Below are positions 4,659 through 15,589 of a DNA stretch of 64,000 bases, piece after piece. Both the position numbers and the translations under genes were made by a program. The DNA is from an uncultured Gemmatimonadota bacterium (GTDB lineage: Bacteria; SM23-81; DAOVCL01): the NCBI GenBank assembly GCA_964626665.1, contig CAZVGK010000009.1, forward strand, positions 24,321 to 88,320, read 5' to 3'. How positions within the stretch are numbered: position 1 is the stretch's first letter; the number at the start of each line of letters is the position of its first letter. The notes below the pieces were generated by a model. It was not told where the DNA came from. It searched no databases and saw nothing but the letters and a program-made list of their open reading frames with translations.

Positions 4659-6884
4659 ATGCGTTGGAAAATGTCTTTGCTAATCCTATCTCTTTTAGTT
4701 GGTTCCTCGGTGATGGGAACAGAGTTAGAGGAGATAAGGAAGGCTATAAGGGAGAAGGGGGCGAAATGGGAGGCGGCAGATACTTGGATCTCCAAGTTGC
4801 CACCGCAGGAAAGGAAAAGGTTTCTTGGAGACAATTTGGCTGATGATTTCTCAAAAGCCCCAGGCAAAGAGATCAGAGGGACCAAGACCGTTCCTACTGA
4901 ATTTGACTGGAGGACCAAGGATGGCCACTTCTGGATGACTCCAGTAAAAGATCAGGAGAATTGCGGTGCCTGCGTTGCCTTTGGGACAGTAGGAGCTTTG
5001 GAGGCAAATATAAAGATCCGAGCCGACAACTTCTGGATTATGCCCGATCTCTCTGAACAGCATCTCTTCTCTTGTGCAGGAGGTGACTGCGGTTATGGGA
5101 TGTCCGTCTATGCGGGGATGAATTATCTCCTCAATCATGGAACACCAGATGAGGAGTGTCTTCCCTATACTCAGGTGGATGACAATTGCAGTGAAACCTG
5201 CTCTGATTGGGAGGAGAGAGCTCGGGGGGTAAATACCTGGGGATGGACGAGCAAGACCATCGCAAGCATAAAGCAGGCTATCTATGACTATGGACCGGTA
5301 GCCGGCCATTTTGATGTCTACGCCGATTTTTTCTCCTACAATGGTGGCGTATATGAGCATACCTCAGGTGGCTACGAAGGAGGGCACTGTATCACCATAG
5401 TTGGTTGGAGTGACAGCTCCCTATGCTGGATCTGCAAAAATAGTTGGGGACCTGGTTGGGGGGAATACGGCCCCTACCCGGACAGCACCAAAGGTTGGTT
5501 CAGGATTAAGTATGGGGAGTGCGAAATTGAATACAAGAAGGCAGCCTGGATGGTCCCCATTATCAAGGGCCCTGATGGGATGGTCCTCCATGATACCTGT
5601 TTTGGGTTTGTTTTGCTACCGGATTCATCTACCTCTGATACTTTGACTATCTCGAATGTAGGTGATAGTCTAGACTTTTATTTAATTCTTAGTCATTCTC
5701 AGAATTGGCTCACCCTGGATGTGATAGCAGACACTTTATCGCCAGCTGAGAGTGTCAAAGTTGGTTTTGACATTGCTACAACGGGATTGTCCGGAGGAAC
5801 CTATTCTGATACTATTGAGGTGGCTGCCAGTGACTCTGAAGGGGTAGTGCTCTATCGGATGTATGTTCCAGTGCACTTAGAGGTTAGTCCGTTGTTTGTA
5901 AGGGGAGATTACGATGATACCGGTGATTTAGCCATGCCAGATGCTCTTAATCTTCTGCTTTGGAAATATCATCAACCCGGTGGAGTGGCACCTCCCTGTG
6001 AGGACGCTGCCGATTACGATGATGATGGAAACATTGCTATGCCTGATGCTTTGGGATTGCTTCTTTACAAATATCATCAGCCTGGAGGGGTTCCTCCAGC
6101 TCCACCCTATCCTGATTGCGGTTTAGATTTTACTGAAGATGGGCTTGAATGTGCTACTTATACCCATTGTCTGAAAGCCGTTAAATCTATGGTTCTCACT
6201 CCAACAAGTGTGAAAAAGGCGATTAACAGAGTCAAGGTCAAGAATTGTTATGGGGCCAAGGATGGCTTGGTAGTTGTTCCTGTGGAGCTTACTAACAAGG
6301 CTGAGCTGAGAGGATTTGAGTTTACGGTCAACTACGATCCTGCTCTTGTTACTGCGATAGAGGTTAGAGGTGGAGATGGATATGATTTCTTTGCTCCCTG
6401 GATAGATAATGAGGCAGGTAAGGTTACCGTTGGCTGTGTTCCTGATATGAGTATGGAGGAGCCATTTGCGGCTGGTCAGAGGGGAGTAGCTGAGATTGCC
6501 TTTAAGGCCAAGGCTGATGCCGGGTTGAAGCTATCTGATGTGGCCTTGTATGGGTCTAAGGCGGAGGCAGTGGATGCTCGTTGGGTGAATGGGGTAGTGA
6601 AGGCAGGAGCAGGGTTACCTAAGGAGTTTGCCCTCAGCCAGAACTATCCAAATCCCTTCAATCCTGTCACTCAGATCAGGTATGCTCTACCTATGGACTG
6701 CCAGGTGAGGCTAGATATCTACAATGTGGTAGGGCAGAGGGTAGCTATTTTGGTAGATGATCATCAAAAGGCTGGATACAAGGTAGTTAGCTGGAATGCT
6801 CAGGATGTGGCCTCTGGTGTCTATTTCTACAAGCTGACTGCTGGCAATTTCACTTCCATCAGGAAGATGGTCTTACTGAAATAA
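4659..6884 (+). CDS. Secreted papain-like C1A cysteine protease with Ig/BACON-like domain, dockerin-like, cohesin-like and CTD modules
   Basis: FDWR...PVKDQENCGACVAF (Q/C), GGHCI (H), CKNSWG (N); duplicated RGDYDDTG..D / DAADYDDDG..D Ca-loops; VVPVELTN...FEFTVNYDP; start moved to ATG 4659 by RBS. Confidence 0.9.
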   Translation: MRWKMSLLILSLLVGSSVMGTELEEIRKAIREKGAKWEAADTWISKLPPQERKRFLGDNLADDFSKAPGKEIRGTKTVPTEFDWRTKDGHFWMTPVKDQENCGACVAFGTVGALEANIKIRADNFWIMPDLSEQHLFSCAGGDCGYGMSVYAGMNYLLNHGTPDEECLPYTQVDDNCSETCSDWEERARGVNTWGWTSKTIASIKQAIYDYGPVAGHFDVYADFFSYNGGVYEHTSGGYEGGHCITIVGWSDSSLCWICKNSWGPGWGEYGPYPDSTKGWFRIKYGECEIEYKKAAWMVPIIKGPDGMVLHDTCFGFVLLPDSSTSDTLTISNVGDSLDFYLILSHSQNWLTLDVIADTLSPAESVKVGFDIATTGLSGGTYSDTIEVAASDSEGVVLYRMYVPVHLEVSPLFVRGDYDDTGDLAMPDALNLLLWKYHQPGGVAPPCEDAADYDDDGNIAMPDALGLLLYKYHQPGGVPPAPPYPDCGLDFTEDGLECATYTHCLKAVKSMVLTPTSVKKAINRVKVKNCYGAKDGLVVVPVELTNKAELRGFEFTVNYDPALVTAIEVRGGDGYDFFAPWIDNEAGKVTVGCVPDMSMEEPFAAGQRGVAEIAFKAKADAGLKLSDVALYGSKAEAVDARWVNGVVKAGAGLPKEFALSQNYPNPFNPVTQIRYALPMDCQVRLDIYNVVGQRVAILVDDHQKAGYKVVSWNAQDVASGVYFYKLTAGNFTSIRKMVLLK
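6255..6631 (+). repeat. 377-bp exact direct repeat, copy 1 (cohesin-like domain coding block); copy 2 at 12071-12447
   Basis: GCCAAGGATGGCTTGG...AAGGAGTTTGC read identical at both loci. Confidence 0.9.
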
Positions 6885-7156: not shown

Positions 7157-10100
7157 ATGAAAACAAAGATTCTGTTTGTAGCTTTGATATCGGTTATGCT
7201 TGCCTTACCCTTAGGATTTGGTAAGGTAAATGCACAGCAGTGTGCCGATTCTATGATTGCTTCTAATAGAGAGGGATATACCGGTGATACTGGGATAATT
7301 GTCCCCATTTATGGCAAGGTTTGTGGCCTAGATATAGGGGGGGATTTAGAGGATTTGGATGGGGTTAGTTTCGCCATGCAATATGACACCAGCCTTGTGG
7401 TCTGCGACACTATTTTGTATGATGTAAGTGATCCTGTTTATCCAAGTTTTCACGATAGCATTCCCAATCCCTTCTTTTGGGCCCCTTACATTGACCCTTC
7501 TGGCTATGTTACCGTAGGGCTTGCCTTTGCTATGCTGGGAACACCTGACATACCACCCGGCCGTTATCGTATGTTTGATTTAGTTTTTAAGGTAAAACCG
7601 GGGGCTCCTCCGGGGGTTACACCTTTAGACATTGAAGATGGTGTTGGCGGTATGAGGAATGCTTTTACTTATGTAACCACTGATGTTTATCCCGAATTGA
7701 TAGATGGCGATTTTATTGTTCTACCAGATTCTTTAACCTTAATATTTGACCCCTTGCCTCCATATAGATTGGGTGAAGGGGAAAACCTGGGTGTCGAGGT
7801 TACAGCTATTGATCCTAATCCGACCCATTTTGTTACTCTAAGTGCCGCTGGTTTAATGGAGAACATGAGTTTTCCGGAGACCAGCGATTTCTTTTTTGCA
7901 ACTGGCACCTTCACCTTCTATCCAAACCAGTGCCAGGCGGGTGTATATAATGTTGTGTTTTTTGCCGACTGTGACTTTGGTTGCCATGTAGAAATCCCGG
8001 TAACGATGACCGTGGATAACATCAACCGGACTCCGAGACTCGATGCTGGTCCTGATCGAGCTATTATAGCAGGAGATACTTTGACCTTCACCGTTACTGC
8101 CACCGATCCCGATTACTGGGAATGTGGCGATGATACCCTCACCCTGAATGCCACCAGTCTTCCTGGGGCGGCAACTTTTGTTCAAGACAGCGATACGACA
8201 GGCATATTTAGTTGGGTCCCTGATTTAGCAGATACGGGAGAGTATACCGTTATCTTCTCCGTTGAGGATCTTGCTGGTACTACCGATAGCGAACCAGTAG
8301 AGATTACTGTCTCGCCACACACTCTGGTTATAATGACGATTCCCGATTCTCCTCCGACCACTGTGAATGAAGGATCGGCCTTGATTTTCGATGTTAGAGC
8401 CATTAATTCTTCTTCAGAGCATACGGTGGATCTGTACGCTATTTATTTGCCAGCCAACGCTAACTTTCCTTCTGAAACTGGTGCTGGCTCTGTGCAATCC
8501 ACATTCACTTTTAACCCGAATTACTGTCAGGCAGGGAGTGATAGTGTCGTCTTTGAAGCGCATTGTTCTGGAAATCTTACCACCACTCGTACGGTGTATC
8601 TTACTGTGAACGATATACCCAAGGCTCCAAATATAGAAGCAGGCGGTCCATATAGTGCCAAACCAAATCATCTTTTGACTTTTAGGGTAATGGCAGCCGA
8701 TCCAGACCTGAAATGTGGCGATGAGGCCCTCATTTTAAGCGCCCTTAATCTCCCCGGAGGCGTTACCTTTAGCCAGGATAGCGACACTACGGGAGTTTTC
8801 AATTGGATTCCCGTTGAAGCCGATACGGGATCTTACACGGTTACCTTTATCGTCGATGATCACACGGCACTGGCTGATAGTGATCAGGCTACAATTAAAG
8901 TAGTTGTCTATGACTTTGAAGATGTCACCGATGATGCTTTTGTGGGGGATGAAGGGCGAGGGCATGGAGTGGCCTGGGGTGACTGGGATGGGGATGGGGA
9001 TCTGGATATTTACATTGTGAATTATAACGAGCCCAATGTTCTTTATCGCAACAACGGCGATGGCACCTTTACGAATGTAGCTGCGGCCGCTGGTGTTGCT
9101 CATGCTGGTGCTGGACACGGTTCGGCTTGGGGAGATTTCGACAACGACGGCGATCTTGACCTTTATGTCACCAATGATGGGCCAAACATTCTTTATCGCA
9201 ACAATGGTGATGGTACCTTCACTGATGTTACCAGCACGGCGGGTGTAGGGAACATTGATTGGGGAAGGGGTACCGCCTGGGGCGATTTTGATAACGATGG
9301 TAACTTAGACCTCTACGTTGTTAATAGTTTATCGACTCAAACGAGCGTTCTTTATCGTAACAATGGTGATGGCATCTTCACCGATGTTACCAGCACGGCC
9401 GGTGTCGAGTTTATGGGAAATGGAAGAGGGGTAGCTTGGGGTGACTGCGACTCCGACGGTGATTTGGATCTATATGTAGTAAACCATTGGCCAGGGGGAA
9501 GTGCTCTTTATCGCAACAACGGTGATGGCACCTTTACAAACGTTGCTAGTTCAGCCGGGGTGGGGAACAATGGGTTGGGTACGGGCGTTGCCTGGGGCGA
9601 TTATGACTCAGACGGCCACCTGGATCTCTCTGTCGTGAATTATGGTGGCTACGGAAACTTCCTGTATCGCAACAACGGTGATGGCACTTTCAACGACGTA
9701 ACCGGGACTGCCGGAGTGGGCCTGGTGGATAATGGATATGGTACTGCCTGGGCGGACTATGATTTAGATGCTGACCTCGACCTCTATGTGGTTAACTATC
9801 AAGGAGGGCGAAAAGCTTACGGAATTAACATTCTCTATTCTAACAACGGTGACGAAACTTTCTCTGACGCTACCGAAAGGGCAGGTGTAGGAGATCCTGG
9901 CTACGGATACGGAACCGCTTGGGGTGATTACGACGACGATGGTGATTTGGACCTCTATGTGGTGAACCACGATCAAGCCAATATTCTCTATCAGAATCAG
10001 ACTGACAATGTCGACTTCATTAAGGTGGTAGTTGAGGGTGCAGCATATTTAGGTCCCGGGTTTAGCAATAGAGATGGCATGGGGGCCAAGGTTGAGGTTC

Positions 10101-12700
10101 ACCAAGCGGGGACCGAGACTCTACTTGGTTTTAGGGAGGTAAGAGGTGGATCTGGTTACTGTTCAATGAACTCTTTAGAAGCTGAGTTTGGCTTAGATCA
10201 CAACTATGCTTACGATCTGAAGGTCACATTCCCTGCAAGTGGTGTGGTCAGGGTTTATTCTAACCTAACCACAGGTCAAAAAATTCTCGTCTATGAGGAA
10301 AGAGCACCATTTGCCTTTTCGCTTATCTCGCCTGCAGATGGAGACACGGCTTGGAGTCTAACTCCGACGATGACCTGGCAAAGGGCTGTTGATCCTGATC
10401 CAGGTGATATCGTCACTTACACTGTTTACTACTCCGAGGATAATACTTTTGCCACCTATGATTCTCTTCCTGATGTCGGAGATACTACCTGCAGTTTACC
10501 GGAACTAACCGATGATACCGTTTACTACTGGAAGGCAAAAGGAAGGGACAATTGGGGCCTGGAGGCCTGGAGTGTTGAGACCTTCAGTTTCAATGTCTAC
10601 TTTCCGGAAGCGCCGAATGCTTTCGATTTACTATACCCTACTGATGGAGATACGATCTATGCTGGCATGGTGACACTGGATTGGGAGGAGGCAACCGAAC
10701 CCGATCCTGGAGATAGTGTCCTTTATACTCTCCATTATAGTATTTCTCCTGAATTTCATCCAGATTCTACAAATATTGTTGACAGTCTAAGTGAGAGCCA
10801 GTATCTCATAGTCTCGGGGTTACCTGACGATGCAAAGATCTATTGGAAGGTGAAGGCCTTTGATATCTTTGGTTTAGAGACCTGGAGCAAACAGATCGAT
10901 TGGAGTTTTTATGTATATACTCCGGAAGCTCCACATACCTTCAGTCTTATTTCACCAGCAGATAGAGATACAGTTTGGAGTTTCACTCCGACCTTAATCT
11001 GGCAGAGGGCCGTTGATCCTGATCCAGGTGATAGCGTCACTTATACTCTCTACTACTCCACAGATAGTGCTTTCGTTGTTCAGGATTCAGTATCCCCTCT
11101 TGCAGATACTACTTGCACATTGCCAATACTGACAGATGACTCTACTTACTACTGGAAGGTAAAGGGAACAGATAATTTTGGTTTAGAGGCCTGGAGTGTT
11201 GAGATTTTTAGTTTCAATGTTTATCTCGTTGAACCCCCTGACTCGTTCGATCTTTTCACTCCAATAGATGGTGATACGGTTTACGCAGGTATTCCAATTA
11301 GGTTAGACTGGGAGGATGCATCGGATCCTGATCCGGGAGATATTATTCTCTACGCCCTGTACTTAAGTTTAAATTCAGATTTTTCAGATTCGATGGCGAT
11401 CGATAGCCTATCAGAGAGTGAATGCACCCTCGATCAGACAAAGGCTTCAACCAAAACTCTCCAAGTTAGAAACCCCGGACGCCAAGCCCTCCCAGAAATG
11501 AAACTGGAAATGCAAGAGGTGGAGAGTAATAATGCAAGCGAATTTATTGAAAGTAGTTGGAGTATTCCTAAGAGCAACCTTGATAGCCTGTTAGCTGACA
11601 CCACCTATTATTGGAAGGTGAAAGCTTATGATAGATGGGGAACTGAGAAATGGAGTAACCAACTGAATTGGAATTTTTATGTGCAATTTAGCTCGCTTTT
11701 CATCAGGGGTGACTACGACGCAAATGGAGAGTTGGCTATGGCTGATGCCCTTGGGCTTCTAGTGTGGAAGTATCATCAGCCTGGTGGGGTTCCTCCTCCC
11801 TGTGAGGATGCTGCGGATTACGATGACAACGGGGATATTTCTATGGCCGATGCTGTAGGGCTTCTGCTCTTCAAATATCATCAGCCTGGTGGGGTTCCTC
11901 CTCCACCTCCCTATCCAGATTGCGGGCCCGATCCCACGAAAGATGGTTTGAGCTGTGACAGCTATCCTCCCTGTAATTGGCCCCCCAAGGCTACCGAGCT
12001 TGTAGTATCTTCTCTTCTGGTAAGTGTAGAGGTTGCCCCCAATGTGGTGAAGGTGGGAGATGGCTATCTTGCCAAGGATGGCTTGGTAGTTGTTCCTGTG
12101 GAGCTTACTAACAAGGCTGAGCTGAGAGGATTTGAGTTTACGGTCAACTACGATCCTGCTCTTGTTACTGCGATAGAGGTTAGAGGTGGAGATGGATATG
12201 ATTTCTTTGCTCCCTGGATAGATAATGAGGCAGGTAAGGTTACCGTTGGCTGTGTTCCTGATATGAGTATGGAGGAGCCATTTGCGGCTGGTCAGAGGGG
12301 AGTAGCTGAGATTGCCTTTAAGGCCAAGGCTGATGCCGGGTTGAAGCTATCTGATGTGGCCTTGTATGGGTCTAAGGCGGAGGCAGTGGATGCTCGTTGG
12401 GTGAATGGGGTAGTGAAGGCAGGAGCAGGGTTACCTAAGGAGTTTGCTCTGAAACAGAATTATCCCAACCCATTCAACGCTATCACCGAGATCAAGTATA
12501 CTTTGCCAAAGGGTTGTTATGTGGGACTGGAAGTCTATAACGTCTTAGGCCAGAAGGTGGCATGTTTGGTGGATAGGAAACAGAAAGCAGGATACAAGAC
12601 AGCCAGGTGGGATGCGGGGTCTCTCTCCAGTGGGGTCTACTTTTACAGGCTTCAGGCTGGGGATTTTGTGCAGATGAGGAAGATGGTGCTTTTGAAATAA
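7157..12700 (+). CDS. Giant secreted scaffold/adhesin (1847 aa): N-terminal cohesin-like, Ig/cadherin-like repeats, FG-GAP beta-propeller with ASPIC/UnbV, FN3-like repeats, dockerin-like, cohesin-like, CTD
   Basis: Seven 'AWGD.D.DGDLDLYV.N' repeats; GGSGYCSMN...EFGL ASPIC-like segment; four 'F.L..P.DG....W....DPDPGD...YYWKVK' repeats; dockerin and CTD motifs. Confidence 0.85.
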   Translation: MKTKILFVALISVMLALPLGFGKVNAQQCADSMIASNREGYTGDTGIIVPIYGKVCGLDIGGDLEDLDGVSFAMQYDTSLVVCDTILYDVSDPVYPSFHDSIPNPFFWAPYIDPSGYVTVGLAFAMLGTPDIPPGRYRMFDLVFKVKPGAPPGVTPLDIEDGVGGMRNAFTYVTTDVYPELIDGDFIVLPDSLTLIFDPLPPYRLGEGENLGVEVTAIDPNPTHFVTLSAAGLMENMSFPETSDFFFATGTFTFYPNQCQAGVYNVVFFADCDFGCHVEIPVTMTVDNINRTPRLDAGPDRAIIAGDTLTFTVTATDPDYWECGDDTLTLNATSLPGAATFVQDSDTTGIFSWVPDLADTGEYTVIFSVEDLAGTTDSEPVEITVSPHTLVIMTIPDSPPTTVNEGSALIFDVRAINSSSEHTVDLYAIYLPANANFPSETGAGSVQSTFTFNPNYCQAGSDSVVFEAHCSGNLTTTRTVYLTVNDIPKAPNIEAGGPYSAKPNHLLTFRVMAADPDLKCGDEALILSALNLPGGVTFSQDSDTTGVFNWIPVEADTGSYTVTFIVDDHTALADSDQATIKVVVYDFEDVTDDAFVGDEGRGHGVAWGDWDGDGDLDIYIVNYNEPNVLYRNNGDGTFTNVAAAAGVAHAGAGHGSAWGDFDNDGDLDLYVTNDGPNILYRNNGDGTFTDVTSTAGVGNIDWGRGTAWGDFDNDGNLDLYVVNSLSTQTSVLYRNNGDGIFTDVTSTAGVEFMGNGRGVAWGDCDSDGDLDLYVVNHWPGGSALYRNNGDGTFTNVASSAGVGNNGLGTGVAWGDYDSDGHLDLSVVNYGGYGNFLYRNNGDGTFNDVTGTAGVGLVDNGYGTAWADYDLDADLDLYVVNYQGGRKAYGINILYSNNGDETFSDATERAGVGDPGYGYGTAWGDYDDDGDLDLYVVNHDQANILYQNQTDNVDFIKVVVEGAAYLGPGFSNRDGMGAKVEVHQAGTETLLGFREVRGGSGYCSMNSLEAEFGLDHNYAYDLKVTFPASGVVRVYSNLTTGQKILVYEERAPFAFSLISPADGDTAWSLTPTMTWQRAVDPDPGDIVTYTVYYSEDNTFATYDSLPDVGDTTCSLPELTDDTVYYWKAKGRDNWGLEAWSVETFSFNVYFPEAPNAFDLLYPTDGDTIYAGMVTLDWEEATEPDPGDSVLYTLHYSISPEFHPDSTNIVDSLSESQYLIVSGLPDDAKIYWKVKAFDIFGLETWSKQIDWSFYVYTPEAPHTFSLISPADRDTVWSFTPTLIWQRAVDPDPGDSVTYTLYYSTDSAFVVQDSVSPLADTTCTLPILTDDSTYYWKVKGTDNFGLEAWSVEIFSFNVYLVEPPDSFDLFTPIDGDTVYAGIPIRLDWEDASDPDPGDIILYALYLSLNSDFSDSMAIDSLSESECTLDQTKASTKTLQVRNPGRQALPEMKLEMQEVESNNASEFIESSWSIPKSNLDSLLADTTYYWKVKAYDRWGTEKWSNQLNWNFYVQFSSLFIRGDYDANGELAMADALGLLVWKYHQPGGVPPPCEDAADYDDNGDISMADAVGLLLFKYHQPGGVPPPPPYPDCGPDPTKDGLSCDSYPPCNWPPKATELVVSSLLVSVEVAPNVVKVGDGYLAKDGLVVVPVELTNKAELRGFEFTVNYDPALVTAIEVRGGDGYDFFAPWIDNEAGKVTVGCVPDMSMEEPFAAGQRGVAEIAFKAKADAGLKLSDVALYGSKAEAVDARWVNGVVKAGAGLPKEFALKQNYPNPFNAITEIKYTLPKGCYVGLEVYNVLGQKVACLVDRKQKAGYKTARWDAGSLSSGVYFYRLQAGDFVQMRKMVLLK
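12071..12447 (+). repeat. 377-bp exact direct repeat, copy 2
   Basis: Identical to 6255-6631. Confidence 0.9.
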
Positions 12701-12722
12701 GGCCAAATGACCTCCTCGCCCC

Positions 12723-12751
12723 TTGACAATAAGGGGAAGGTAGTGTAAATT
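12723..12751 (+). promoter_or_regulatory. sigma70-type promoter inside the left end of the element
   Basis: TTGACA-17 nt-TAAATT; -35 lies within a CCCCTT...AAGGGG hairpin. Confidence 0.6.
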
Positions 12752-12778
12752 ATAGCCTATTTAAAACGGGGGGGTCTT

Positions 12779-13618
12779 ATGCAGCTTACAGAAGTAGGGC
12801 AGCGTCTGAAAGATAAAAGTCTGGACGGGCGGTTGTTATGGGAACTGGAGCATGGCTTTGAGCTCTCACCACGGGAAAGCGGATTAATTGTTGAAACAGT
12901 TCGTTCATACTACAGTCAAGCACCAAAGGCTAAAAGTGGTCGGGTGGGTTTATGGGTTGTTAAACTTGATGCCAGTGTTGGTAAGCCGCTTAATGAATTG
13001 CCAAAGGTTCAGGTATGGGTAACGCTGGATGGTGGTCAGGAGGATTTAGAGGCATACCGGTCATACGGTCATGCTGGATTACGCAGGCAAAAACTCCTTC
13101 GTATTACCGAGGAGATTGTTGATCAGTATGGTATTGCCACCCAGGAGGATTTGGCGCGTCTTTTAGGGACGAGTCTGCGCACGATCAGGCGGGATATTAC
13201 CTACCTACAAGGTCAAGGTTTACAGGTTTTAACCAGAGGGGTATACTCTGACATTGGTCCGTCATTAAGTCACAAAGTAGTTATTGTGGAGCTGTTTTTA
13301 TCTGGTTCTGTTTATACGGAGATTTGTCGGAGGACGCGTCATTCTGCAAAAGCTGTAAAGCGCTATGTCAATACCTTTGGGCGGGTAGTGGCTTTACATG
13401 AGCGGGGGATTAAGGCACCAGAGGAGCTGGCCAACTATGCGGGCATCAGCAAGAGGTTGGCCACTGAGTATCTGAATTTGTATTTCCAGGTTAGCAAGAG
13501 GGCAGCCTTTAAGGAACGCATCAAAGAGGTGTTGGAACAACTTTCATCGCGCCCCAGTTATCCAGGTGTAGATAAGACTGGTATGAAAAAAGGGGGTCTG
13601 GTGGAGGCTGGACGATGA
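12779..13618 (+). CDS. DUF1670-family protein A (HTH-containing; putative mobility protein)
   Basis: Recognised from pattern 'EEIVDQYGIATQEDLARLLGTSLRTIRRDI...TRG..SDIGPSLSHK..IV.L...G....EI.RRT.HS..AV.RY'. Confidence 0.75.
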   Translation: MQLTEVGQRLKDKSLDGRLLWELEHGFELSPRESGLIVETVRSYYSQAPKAKSGRVGLWVVKLDASVGKPLNELPKVQVWVTLDGGQEDLEAYRSYGHAGLRRQKLLRITEEIVDQYGIATQEDLARLLGTSLRTIRRDITYLQGQGLQVLTRGVYSDIGPSLSHKVVIVELFLSGSVYTEICRRTRHSAKAVKRYVNTFGRVVALHERGIKAPEELANYAGISKRLATEYLNLYFQVSKRAAFKERIKEVLEQLSSRPSYPGVDKTGMKKGGLVEAGR

Positions 13619-14496
13619 AGGGATATTATGGGGATCGTCGAGACCGTTTTGCCAGCCTGGAGAAACGGACTTTCAGAACAGCTTTGATCCATTTGTTGGA
13701 GACCGAATACAAGCTTATTGGCAGTCATCGGGTTCTGGAAGCCCTTTCAGATGATGTTGCACAGCTTCAGCAGGAGTATTTTCCCTTACGGGAGCGAATT
13801 GAAGCTGGGACAATCGCCTGGGTGACCACCAAGAAGACGGTCCGTAAGGCGAGTTACGGCAAACGCACCGAGGACTATGAAAGTGTGATGGTGTATTTAC
13901 CGTTGGTTACGCGGGGCGATTTGGATAAACGCGTTTTTGTAAAGGCGGGGACCAAGAACAGCAATTATGTGGTAAATCGGGAGCGTGATTTGGAGATCAT
14001 GGCCCGTTTGGTAAAGTCGGCCTGGGATCAGGGTGGTATGATTTCCCAGGCGGAGCTATGCGTACTGATGAATCGCAGCTTGACGACGATAGGTAAGTAC
14101 ATAGCGGAGTATGAGGCCAGACATCCGGATGACCCCTTACCGTTAAAGGGGTACATCCTTGATCAAGGCAGTCGCCCAACGCACAAAGGCATCATCCTGA
14201 ACCTTTATGAGCAGGGTATAGATCCGACTGAAATTGCGCAACGCACAAACCACGGACTCGATGCGGTTGATCGCTATATCAAAGCGTATGAGCGGGTAAA
14301 GGGTCTTTATAAGAAGGGACTGGATCGTGCTGAGATTAAGAAAGTGACCGGTTTGAGTTTGAAGGTGATTGACGCATATTTGAGCATAGTGAAACACTTT
14401 CATCCATCGGAGGGTAAACCTGATGTGCTTCTGGCAAAAAAAAGACCCTCAAAAGCAAAACCCTCTCAAAAAAAGCGTATAGGTCATTTGGCCTGA
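13615..14496 (+). CDS. DUF1670-family protein B, paralog of A
   Basis: 'AWDQGGMISQAEL...P.KG...DQG..PTHK.II..LY..G....EIA.RT.H...AVDRY'; ATGA overlap with A; stop codon overlaps right IR. Confidence 0.75.
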   Translation: MKGYYGDRRDRFASLEKRTFRTALIHLLETEYKLIGSHRVLEALSDDVAQLQQEYFPLRERIEAGTIAWVTTKKTVRKASYGKRTEDYESVMVYLPLVTRGDLDKRVFVKAGTKNSNYVVNRERDLEIMARLVKSAWDQGGMISQAELCVLMNRSLTTIGKYIAEYEARHPDDPLPLKGYILDQGSRPTHKGIILNLYEQGIDPTEIAQRTNHGLDAVDRYIKAYERVKGLYKKGLDRAEIKKVTGLSLKVIDAYLSIVKHFHPSEGKPDVLLAKKRPSKAKPSQKKRIGHLA

Positions 14497-14769
14497 TAGG
14501 AAGTAGGCTGGTGTTTCCAGCACGCAGAACCTGAGATTTGTATCTTTCTAAGCGGTTTGTTTTTACAGGAATACGAGGGGAATCTGCACCGCTGTACTAT
14601 TTTTGTTGAGTGAAATTGCTGAAGATTGATCGGAAAAATCTTGAAAAAAGCCTTTTTTCTAACATGTTTTGCCATGGCAATATTTAATCGACAGCCACTG
14701 GATGATTTTGAATTTTGTATCCATTCACCGCTCATCATCCCTGTGAGAAACAGGGGAAAGCCAAATAAG

Positions 14770-14995
14770 TGGACCAACATGGAAAATTCAGCCGAAAGGG
14801 AGCTACTATATGTCGAGCGAAACAATTTTGCCTGTGGTTTCTTAACCATCAAAGCTTTTGTTGAAAGGGGGTGAGAAGACAATGTGGGAGGTGCGTGATT
14901 TCCTTATGAGTCTGATTTTTAACTGGCCTATTGTCGGCAATCCGAAAGGTTAAGCCATACTGAGTGGTAGATTCAAGTCTTTCCGTGTTGGTCCA
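14770..14995 (+). other. Long-range hairpin-bounded segment containing a 23-codon sORF (14882-14953, MWEVRDFLMSLIFNWPIVGNPKG)
   Basis: TGGACCAACATGGAAA pairs with TTTCCGTGTTGGTCCA, followed by T-run; SD AAAGGGGGTGA at 14864-14874. Confidence 0.4.
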
Positions 14996-15120
14996 TTTTT
15001 TATGTAATTAAAGAACTGCTAAGATCAGCCCAAATATACATGATTCAATACCTGGTTTCCATCGATTTGGGTGGTTTTGGAATCGTGGAAGTAGTTGTAG
15101 AGGATGAGCAATTGTTACCT

Positions 15121-15384
15121 TTACCCAAAGAGTTTGTCCACTCCCAGAGCAATTCCAGCTCATTCAATGCTGTCACTCAGACCAAATATGCTTCGCCTAA
15201 AGATTACAAAGTCAAGTTGGGAGTTTACAACGTCTTAGGCTAAAAGGTGGCTACTTTGGTTAATGGTCACCAGAAAGCCGAATACAAGACCGTCAGGTGG
15301 GATGCGGGCTTCCTCTCCAGGGGCATTTACAGATTAAAGGCTGGTGATTTTGCGCAGATGAGGAAGATGGTTTCGCTGAAGTAA
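15121..15384 (+). pseudogene. Orphan decayed CTD
   Basis: LPKEFVHSQSNSSSFNA...VYNVLG*KVATLVNGHQKAEYKTVRWDAG...RKMVSLK*; internal TAA at 15241, NYPNPFN eroded, 6-nt deletion. Confidence 0.8.
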
Positions 15385-15589
15385 AGCCAAAATGTATGAG
15401 GAGGACTCCAAAGGGCCCTCTTCTCCTTTTAGTTGAAGACTACCTCGTTGGTTGTCTGTCCACTGGTGATTTATAATGCAAAGATAGCTAATAGCCAACC
15501 TTTGGCGCGAAATTTAAATAAGGAAGCGATTATTAAAACACTTTTCGCTGTCAGTTTTATGTTGCAAATTAAAAACTCGGGAGGGAAGA

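Follow-up and report, generated by a model that had tools for sequence, protein, structure and literature searches.

Insertion sequences are classed by their transposase, and all established classes use a handful of known catalytic folds. Several described elements insert at defined sites or leave a two-base flanking repeat. Tn7, when directed to attTn7 by the TnsD pathway, reads a conserved protein-coding 3' end as DNA and lands at a fixed base, in one orientation, where it does no harm to the gene, leaving a 5-bp duplication. Members of the IS630/Tc1-mariner group carry a DDE enzyme, terminal inverted repeats and paired helix-turn-helix (HTH) DNA-binding modules, and are flanked by a repeated TA. 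In IS607-type serine transposases and serine integrases, the exchange is confined to two bases shared by element and target, and specificity comes from protein-DNA contacts on either side. IS1202-family elements, which target dif/pdif sites, and IS110/IS1111 are site- and orientation-specific insertion sequences that encode DDE or DEDD transposases, IS110/IS1111 using in addition a guide RNA. Finally, IS200/IS605 elements, which rely on an HUH/Y1 enzyme, carry palindromes just inside their ends and insert directly 3' of a short fixed sequence in one orientation.

In this work, we analysed an element of 1,804 bp located in a 64,000-nucleotide stretch (hereafter the window) of contig CAZVGK010000009.1 from an uncultured Gemmatimonadota bacterium. 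It shares with Tn7 the logic of its targeting, but it has no TnsA/B/C/D homologues, encodes two HTH proteins in 1.8 kb, inserts inside the last codon rather than downstream of the gene, leaves a two-base flanking repeat and has dozens of target genes per genome instead of one (94 CTD-tail-like ORF ends in the window's genome). With IS630/Tc1-mariner it has in common terminal inverted repeats, a two-base flanking repeat and paired HTH modules (weak hits to HTH_29 and HTH_23), while it lacks a DDE domain, its dinucleotide is AA or CG and not TA, its orientation and position are strict, and it has two genes. The likeness to IS607-type and serine integrase systems, i.e. an exchange confined to two shared bases with specificity from protein-DNA contacts on either side, is inferred; no resolvase catalytic domain was matched, and the two ends are unequal by three bases. 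Like IS1202 and IS110/IS1111 elements it is site- and orientation-specific, but the window copy has only about 86 non-coding bases, which leaves no room for a guide RNA. As in IS200/IS605, palindromes lie just inside the ends, insertion is directly 3' of a short fixed sequence and in one orientation, and a reading without duplication is possible, but no HUH/Y1 or Y2 domain was hit, and the two terminal palindromes are true inverted repeats of each other, which points to double-stranded recognition.

All features of the window described below are on the forward strand. AGGCCAAATGACCT lies at 12700-12713 and its exact reverse complement at 14481-14494, and a repeat search extended the pair to 17 nt with one mismatch (12697-12713 / 14481-14497). 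Between the repeats, ORF A (12779-13618, 279 aa) and ORF B (13615-14496, 293 aa) overlap by ATGA. Both belong to Pfam DUF1670 (PF07900), with 167.9 bits (E 2.7e-49) for A and 159.7 bits (E 8.8e-47) for B against a cut-off of 25 bits, and they are paralogues over their whole length (hhalign probability 99.3 %, E 2e-20, 235 columns). A promoter-like site reading into A and B, TTGACA-17-TAAATT, lies at 12723-12751 (10 of 12 positions in a consensus scan), and its TTGACA is kept in most of the related metagenome elements compared. The observation made in the sequence-only reading, i.e. perfect 14-nt inverted repeats bracketing two overlapping DUF1670 paralogues and a promoter, was therefore confirmed. 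Within the window alone the repeat is not statistically decisive, as 17 of 100 shuffles gave 2 or more matches at up to 2 mismatches; the weight comes from relatives. This, together with the regulator-like appearance of the proteins, would suit a pair of ordinary transcription regulators whose operators happen to form an inverted repeat, but such an immobile pair is very unlikely, being contradicted by the near-identical copies with sharp ends, the empty sites and the assemblies that break at the ends, all described below.

The boundaries of the element, 12697 and 14500, were taken from the sharp ends of identity between copies in other genomes, the common architecture and the empty sites. The left end (12697-12713) consists of ATA plus the 14-nt dyad-symmetric repeat AGGCCA-AA-TGACCT, and the right end (14481-14500) of the repeat AGGTCA-TT-TGGCCT followed by six bases, GATAGG (14495-14500), the last three of which have no partner at the left end. 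The sequence-only reading had placed the element at 12700-14496 and considered the ATA found on both sides as a possible, though uncertain, target duplication. Both points had to be corrected: the ATA at 12697-12699 belongs to the element, that at 14496-14498 lies inside the right-end linker, and neither is a target duplication. The repeated target dinucleotide is AA (12695-12696 and 14501-14502).

The upstream gene (7157-12700) encodes a 1,847-aa secreted protein ending in RKMVLLK, whose last 120 residues hit the type IX secretion C-terminal sorting domain Por_Secre_tail (PF18962, E 2.8e-10). The left AA forms the first two bases of its last codon, whereas the third base of this codon and the stop codon (12697-12700) are supplied by the element. 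The displaced original end of the gene (AAG TAG, Lys-stop) still sits at 14501-14506. The window copy is thus inserted after base 2 of the last sense codon of a type IX secretion C-terminal-domain (CTD) gene and is co-oriented with it.

In order to assess mobility, related copies were examined. A genome of the same genus (G002) has two left and two right ends of a close relative at contig ends, beside four different flanks. Two long-read genomes hold multiple copies, i.e. 9 full copies at 99 % identity or more in G064 and 6 full copies at 100 % as listed in G065, and identity between copies stops sharply at the ends. Additionally, 13 of 15 metagenome contigs other than the window's own are 1,865-2,479 bp, about the length of the element. 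The window's genome itself holds one copy only, so that activity in this host is at most inferred, and no circular or excised form was seen among the contigs searched.

Of 96 sources scanned, 49, including the window copy, were scored as complete elements. All 49 have ATA/ATG plus a 14-nt repeat at the left, the inverted copy plus six bases at the right (tail consensus N-A-T-a-G-T), A followed by B, and an identical dinucleotide on both sides (AA in 46, CG in 3); the 'AT' plus stop codon was required by the anchor of the scan and is a criterion rather than a result. The left-end logo over these elements reads ATA..G.CA..TG.C at 1.8-2.0 bits. The insertion point lies inside the last sense codon (Lys AAR or Arg CGN), always in one orientation. 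Nine of 10 upstream C-termini tested are Por_Secre_tail, and the target logo reads A-a-g-A-A-g-A-T-G-n-T-t-c-T-g-n-T-g, then the dinucleotide, then A-T-A-A. In 42 of 45 elements with enough flank, a stop codon follows directly after the completed last codon at the right junction.

Seven empty sites at two loci show the insertion point, the dinucleotide being present once. Contig C80 of genome G061 has GATGAA|GTGAC, against the occupied GATGAA[ATAG...TTGT]AAGTGAT, and six relatives of G065 have CTGATGAAGTAG/TAA (AAATAG in one), against the occupied CTGATGAA[ATAG...TAGT]AAGTAG. The flanking dinucleotide can also be read as carried by the element, without duplication, or as a crossover dinucleotide, as the sequence cannot tell these apart.

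We then considered whether the element could be a non-autonomous cassette moved in trans by a transposase encoded elsewhere, for instance an IS630-type DDE enzyme, which also makes 2-bp duplications, A and B being passengers or regulators. In favour of this view, there is a two-base flanking repeat, the HTH of B shows a faint likeness to the IS630 N-terminal DNA-binding region (NF033545, E 0.0073, 15.8 bits against a cut-off of 100; HTH_29, E 1.3e-06), and an element that we read from its ORFs as IS630-like is present in G064. However, no DDE family was found in Pfam at E up to 1, and the IS630 and IS21 NCBIfam models score 12-16 bits against cut-offs of 100-160, on the HTH part only. In G064, all 21 exact repeat matches belong to the 9 copies (18), two partial copies (2) or one solo site (1), and in G065 all 12 exact matches belong to the 6 copies; in these two genomes, the only ones examined in this way, the repeats bracket only DUF1670 pairs, their fragments and single solo sites. 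Moreover, both genes are kept as a pair in every complete element and are under purifying selection (dN/dS 0.11-0.25 in 7 valid comparisons; 0.12-0.17 for A against three close relatives, 0.11-0.25 for B), the dinucleotide is AA or CG, and insertion is orientation-specific. This possibility was thus considered unlikely.

The structure of the two proteins was predicted with AlphaFold2 (pLDDT 80.5 for A and 72.5 for B). Both model as strings of HTH modules plus a beta-hairpin, A with a DeoR-like winged helix and two further HTH units, and no recognised catalytic fold. Foldseek found 0 PDB matches at E 0.001 or better for either model. A full-model scan gave no chain of 48,161 with Z of 8 or more, the best rows (Z 6.1-6.4) being winged-helix or HTH domains, although the N-terminal 90-110 residues were barely tested by those scans. 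The hairpin-plus-winged-helix part of A resembles the DnaD N-terminal oligomerisation domain only weakly (Z 5.1). A profile search of PDB sequences gave nothing for B and only winged-helix regulators for A. Regarding serine recombinases, Pfam gave only HTH_7 at E 0.05, and the only such row in the fold lists is a C-terminal HTH (2r0q_C, Z 5.6). Modelling as pure multi-HTH proteins without a catalytic pocket had been set beforehand as a refutation of a catalytic role, and the models do take this form, with no catalytic fold recognised.

On the other hand, the segment 'HK...H...RY' pointed out in the sequence-only reading is the most conserved feature of the family. It runs P176...H190 K191...H213...R220 Y221 in B, and across 93 family members held to at most 50 % identity the counts are H190 93/93, Y221 91/93, G185 91, D183 89, K191 89, H213 89, R131 89 and R220 72. 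Such conservation fits catalysis, or contacts to the invariant bases of the repeats. A likeness to tyrosine-recombinase box II had been proposed, which would imply a tyrosine-recombinase-like active site, [ST]-H-K...H...R-Y standing for the His/Arg, His/Trp and Tyr of box II, and integration from a circle by site-specific recombination. The spacing (HK, 21 residues, H, 7 residues, Y) is close to that of tyrosine recombinases, and insertion is orientation-specific at a fixed base. Nevertheless, the likeness remains unconfirmed: the segment lies in a three-helix HTH unit, no Phage_integrase hit was obtained at E up to 1 in Pfam, no integrase appeared in the PDB profile searches, and no chain with the R-K-H-R-H/W-Y catalytic fold is among the listed fold matches, although absence from a list does not exclude it. 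Where the target reads AAGTGA or AAGTAG, the left junction always carries the element's version and the right junction the target's, which fits an exchange confined to the two shared bases and not the 6-8-bp overlap region of tyrosine recombinases. We therefore regard this reading as unlikely.

Taken together, the sequence-only interpretation was partly supported: this is an IS-like mobile element made only of a DUF1670 pair, its promoter and terminal repeats, and it belongs to a large family, but its proposed ends, ATA duplication and recombinase likeness were not supported as written. The comparative data make it a firm mobile element, and the family is clearly mobile. We consider the window copy an intact copy of a site- and orientation-specific insertion sequence (probability about 0.6 for this explanation as a whole, with the inferred roles of A and B given below), and found the family described in no paper, none in the literature searched containing 'DUF1670' or 'PF07900'. 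The comparisons establish its composition (promoter, two overlapping paralogues and a 14-bp dyad-symmetric site at each end, inverted relative to each other), its position after the first two bases of the last sense codon of a type IX secretion CTD gene, the dinucleotide on both sides, and the fact that its first four bases (A+TAA; A+TAA/TAG/TGA in the family) complete the codon and give a new stop, leaving the host protein unchanged and rebuilding the target at the left junction. By contrast, it is inferred that A and B, probably as a hetero-oligomer, bind the two half-sites of each terminal repeat through their HTH modules and bring the ends together, that they recognise the conserved DNA encoding the KM(V/I/L)LLK tail, and that they direct a strand exchange staggered by two base pairs. 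DNA cleavage and joining by A/B is likewise only inferred; we lean, at about 45 %, towards the pair performing the chemistry itself, the candidate site being the family-invariant motif P-x-[RK]-G-x3-D-x-G-x3-[ST]-H-K...H-x5-[DE]-R-Y plus an invariant Arg (R131 in B).

If so, and this is tentative and less likely than not, the DUF1670 pair would be a new class of DNA transposase or site-specific recombinase, with an active site built on HTH modules (the invariant Arg, the P-x-[RK]-G-x3-D-x-G-x3-[ST]-H-K linker and the H...R-Y helix), making a two-base staggered exchange and reading the coding DNA of a secretion signal as its address. It would then be a sixth enzyme type for prokaryotic transposition, beside DDE, DEDD, HUH, serine and tyrosine, and a compact natural system for scarless insertion at gene ends. 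Either a new DNA-breaking and -joining chemistry is hidden in two small DNA-binding proteins, or a very small element has learned to borrow a host enzyme with base-pair precision. The targeting is unusual in itself, since reading the DNA for the last residues of a secretion signal, and repairing the codon and stop, results in many safe landing sites per genome, with traces of repeated use.

The alternative, i.e. that A and B only choose the target and pair the ends while a recruited host enzyme (such as a resident recombinase, topoisomerase or repair nuclease) breaks and joins the DNA, would resemble elements that exploit Xer recombinases. It is possible but rather unlikely in our view. The absence of a recognised catalytic fold speaks for it. 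However, no candidate partner is known, and the strict invariance of H, K, H, Y, D and R residues is more than most pure targeting proteins show. The family is widespread, as 1,140 cluster representatives match at E 0.001 or better, and it is reported from many phyla (according to record titles and cluster taxa), so that the partner would have to be near-universal. Among nine long family members scanned, the additional regions were only more DUF1670 modules or, in one case, a CHC2 zinc finger, and never a nuclease or recombinase domain, which also fits this alternative.

In order to characterize the content of the element, we first examined the window copy itself. The sequence AGGCCAAATGACCT was found at 12700-12713 and its exact reverse complement at 14481-14494, and a repeat finder extended this pair to 17 nt with one mismatch. 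Between the repeats lie a promoter-like site, TTGACA-17-TAAATT (12723-12751), and two ORFs that overlap by ATGA, i.e. A at 12779-13618 and B at 13615-14496. Both encode DUF1670 proteins (PF07900, E-values of 2.7e-49 and 8.8e-47) and are paralogues over 235 aligned columns (hhalign probability 99.3%). No transposase or recombinase family of Pfam or NCBIfam matched either protein. The upstream ORF (7157-12700) ends in a type IX secretion sorting domain (Por_Secre_tail, E-value 2.8e-10). The inverted repeats and the coupled DUF1670 pair pointed out by the sequence-only reading are thus present as described. On the window alone, however, the repeat is suggestive and not decisive, and the genome of the window holds this one copy only. 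About 600 bases downstream of the element, at 15040-15400, lies a decayed fragment of another C-terminal-domain (CTD) tail, in which ORF 15040-15243 reads ...NSSSFNAVTQTKYASPKDYKVKLGVYNVLG.

Comparison with other genomes established that this unit is a mobile element. In a genome of the same genus (G002), four contigs end inside the termini of a close relative, two at left ends and two at right ends, each beside a different flank, which is the usual mark of a repeat that breaks an assembly. A second congener (G001) has an A/B pair 91% and 97% identical in protein, and its DNA similarity to the window starts only 76 bases before the element. In a metagenome scan, 16 of 131 candidate stretches encode relatives; of the 15 contigs other than that of the window, 13 are 1,865-2,479 bp, about one element long. 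A genome scan found 209 relatives, of which 80 were kept. Several long-read assemblies hold many copies: G064 has 9 full-length copies at 99% or more, plus two halves and fragments, G065 has 6 full-length copies, and five further genomes have 2-3 copies each. Identity between copies stops within a few bases of the terminal repeats, and the flanks are unrelated. In G064, the two halves of one element (bases 1-899 and 928-1828) lie 46 kb apart in opposite orientation (C5:127016-127914, minus strand, and C5:173479-174379, plus strand), each with a normal outer junction, the break being at the A/B gene boundary; this may reflect an inversion or another insertion. No match was found in the plasmid and phage collections. 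Four public runs that were not marked as a possible source were also examined as assembled contigs, in which no contig joined 12696 to 14501 (empty site) and none joined the right end to the left end (circle). As contigs cannot show rare forms, this result says nothing about activity. The one long joint, from 12615 to 15338, links two CTD tails through the homology of the decayed downstream fragment.

To define the ends and the target, 96 sources (the window and 95 related loci, L040-L134) were scanned with a script searching for the best inverted repeat around the A/B pair and then for an anchor, 'AT' followed by a stop codon, in a fixed geometry taken from one example. Fifty-five sources were anchored, of which 49 had the full architecture with the same dinucleotide on both sides (AA in 46, CG in 3), whereas in the other 6 the repeat finder had locked onto unrelated repeats. 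The remaining 41 sources were left out of the scoring because contigs were cut, no repeat pair was found or no anchor was found, although some of them (L047, L072, L076 and L129) fit by eye. The anchor makes 'AT plus stop' a criterion and not a finding, but the matching dinucleotide, with a chance of 1 in 16 per candidate, is a finding. The common plan consists of a target ...A-A-G-A-T-G-n-T-n-C-T-G-n-T-G followed by the dinucleotide, then ATA (once ATG) plus a 14-nt dyad repeat with invariant G.CA..TG.C, then the promoter, A and B, then the inverted copy of the repeat plus six bases (consensus N-A-T-a-G-T), and finally the same dinucleotide again. Element lengths are 1,719-1,949 bp. The upstream peptide ends in ...KM(V/I/L)LLK or a close variant, and three elements follow an Arg codon instead. 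Nine of ten upstream C-termini tested are Por_Secre_tail, the tenth being a Prismane-family protein. After the right-hand dinucleotide plus one base, a stop codon follows in 42 of 45 cases. This explains why otherwise identical copies differ there (AAATAG, AAATAA, AAGTGA, AAGTAG), as it is the original end of each target gene. The three CG cases show that the position is set by the reading frame of the tail-coding DNA and not by 'AA' as such.

Empty sites were then sought in related genomes. In the genome G061, the counterpart of the occupied L107 locus (84-87% identical flanks) reads ...GATGAA|GTGAC, whereas the occupied site reads GATGAA[ATAG...TTGT]AAGTGAT. For a second occupied locus (L084), we examined six of the 16 relatives that had a match, chosen because their left-flank match ends at the junction. 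All six read ...ATGAAGTAA, ...ATGAAGTAG or ...ATGAAATAG and then run straight on into non-element sequence, whereas the occupied site reads CTGATGAA[ATAG...TAGT]AAGTAG. A seventh relative (G106) appears to carry a diverged element at the same site. At a second Melioribacteraceae locus (L113, compared with the genome G066) the right flank is conserved at 96% but the upstream gene is different, so there is no clean empty site, and relatives of G064 gave only distant flank matches (70-82%). The element therefore enters after base 2 of the last sense codon, and its own A+TAG/TAA/TGA restores the amino acid (AAA = Lys, CGA = Arg) and the stop. In the window, this gives a TSD-like AA at 12695-12696 and 14501-14502, the element at 12697-14500 (and not at 12700-14496, as the sequence-only reading had placed it) and the displaced AAG TAG at 14501-14506. 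The two bases may be a true duplication, a crossover dinucleotide or a part of the element, alternatives that the sequence does not distinguish. Where element and target differ just after the two bases, the left junction always has the element's version and the right junction the target's, which argues for an exchange confined to those two bases.

A consequence of this design is that the left junction is again a perfect target. In line with that, 4 of 43 right flanks carry a 14-mer with 5-6 of 6 palindromic pairs in exactly the register of an older left end, against 0.9% of control positions. One of them (L083, after position 5358) is a complete 'ATA-palindrome-AATAGT-AA' unit followed by a further repeat-like sequence. 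Solo terminal-repeat units, i.e. ATA plus a palindrome, in some cases followed by the six-base tail and AA, follow CTD stop codons or sit behind resident elements in the right flanks of L083 and L112, in G002 (L036, contig C94) and in G064 (L153, C13:35487), those of G002 and G064 following CTD stops. They look like footprints of earlier insertions at a target that the element recreates. The genome of the window has 94 ORF ends with a CTD-tail-like heptapeptide plus stop, 44 of them ending in Lys, and one of these ends is occupied; the same heptapeptide occurs 24 times away from a stop.

AlphaFold2 models of the two proteins (pLDDT 80.5 for A and 72.5 for B) show the same predicted plan, with N-terminal helices, a two-stranded hairpin, a long helix, a winged helix (DeoR-like in A), a conserved linker of low confidence and two further HTH units. 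Foldseek found nothing in the PDB at an E-value of 0.001 or better, and an exhaustive structural alignment found no chain of 48,161 with Z of 8 or more, both scans having barely tested the first 90-110 residues. The top rows (Z 6.1-6.4) are winged-helix or HTH domains of regulators, the topoisomerase VI-A winged helix and sigma region 4. The topoisomerase VI-A/Spo11 winged helix ranked first for B (Z 6.1) and third for A (Z 6.2), but it was tied with ordinary regulators and, by rough counting from the aligned ranges, we saw no conserved tyrosine at the corresponding place, so this candidate was rejected. Profile searches of PDB sequences gave nothing relevant. A complex prediction of A with B (score 0.17, mark 0.32) counts neither for nor against their binding.

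The family is large, with 1,140 representatives at an E-value of 0.001 or better. A word search for longer homologues found none, which is weak evidence; the exhaustive search did find long forms. Of nine long members scanned, seven add only further DUF1670 or DUF1670-like modules (four of 930-952 aa carry three matched stretches, two of 532-546 aa carry two, two of 414-428 aa carry an N-terminal extension) and one adds a CHC2 zinc finger. Among P0266, P0269, P0276 and P0279 (930-952 aa) and P0350 (400 aa), some are single long proteins with three DUF1670 stretches, and one carries the CHC2 (DnaG-type) zinc finger at its C-terminus. Both genes evolve under purifying selection, with dN/dS of 0.11-0.25 in 7 comparisons; an eighth comparison (A of L041) was excluded because an indel broke the ungapped alignment. 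We further aligned 93 sequences, i.e. 91 representatives of 235-300 aa out of the 150 listed, plus A and B. In B numbering, the residues kept almost everywhere are R131 (kept in 89), Q139 (80), P176 (87), G179 (87), D183 (89), G185 (91), T/S189 (91), H190 (93), K191 (89), H213 (89), R220 (72), Y221 (91), R227 (72) and Y255 (85). The residues of A matching R131, D183, H190, K191, H213, R220 and Y221 are R108, D158, H165, K166, H188, R195 and Y196. This is an enlarged version of the motif which the sequence-only reading had compared with tyrosine recombinases. It may be an active site, but it may equally be the set of contacts to the invariant bases of the repeats.

We next asked which machinery moves the element. 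In G064, all 21 exact matches to the repeat core belong to the nine copies (18), two partial copies (2) or one solo site (1), and in G065 all 12 exact matches belong to the six copies, so no other kind of unit shares these ends in these two genomes. The flanks of the copies have nothing in common, and the window copy has only about 86 non-coding bases, which leaves no room for a guide RNA. We therefore favour the view that A and B are the element's own recombination machinery, with catalysis by the pair itself at a probability of about 45%. That A and B only target the site and pair the ends while recruiting a host enzyme is possible but less likely, and mobilization in trans by a resident transposase is very unlikely. 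A strictly tyrosine-recombinase-like mechanism is a minority version of the first view. The interpretation of the sequence-only reading, i.e. that DUF1670 pairs may be the catalytic machinery of a mobile element family, is partly supported, the mobile element family being confirmed and the catalytic role being a possibility only. The mobility, the ends and the insertion point are shown by the sequence comparisons, whereas DNA binding and pairing of the ends by A and B are inferred, and catalysis by them is a hypothesis. An IS630-type link was also considered, because one G064 copy is cut down to its first 236 bases by an IS630-like element (L159, G064:C14:261900-264600, about 380-1435), composed of two ORFs, HTH then DDE-like, named from our reading of the translations. 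A short stretch upstream of its start codon resembles the DUF1670 right end, but in a second copy of that IS the resemblance is largely lost, and we take it as chance.

No paper mentioning DUF1670 or PF07900 was found in the literature searched, and broader searches of it gave nothing on such an element; NCBIfam transposase models do not claim these proteins. The present analysis provides the corrected ends of this copy, seven empty sites, the rule of insertion after base 2 of the last codon (shown by both the AA and the CG lineages), the regenerated target with traces of repeated use, the finding that the ends bracket only DUF1670 pairs in two genomes, and the family-wide list of invariant residues.

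Regarding distribution, the closest named relative of the window copy lies on a record titled Candidatus Zixiibacteriota (L057, B 97% identical). Long contigs with elements are titled Ignavibacteria, Bacteroidota, Cloacimonadota, Melioribacteraceae and Marinimicrobia. Very short contigs filed under other groups may be binning errors. Element-length contigs (1.7-3.5 kb) are filed in bins named Gammaproteobacteria, Arcobacter, Smithella, Thermoplasmatota and Trueperaceae, and at least two of them (L056 and L114) carry a type IX CTD tail upstream. High-copy elements are probably often mis-binned, so host range read from such bins is unsafe.

Variation was also seen around the element. In G001 (L031, contig C163; 1218-1270 and 1462-1874), a CTD gene is followed by only the first 50 bases or so of the element's left end, and then by two small ORFs that look like a putative HicB/HicA-type pair. 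An Rfam search of eight related loci returned only two tRNAs beside one element. Three related elements (L044:1857-1915, L046:2009-2067 and L050:1656-1714) carry an extra conserved module of about 60 nt between the stop of B and the right repeat, which the window copy lacks; this module has no Rfam match and has a predicted two-helix consensus fold of 18 pairs, 4 of them with compensatory changes among the three sequences.
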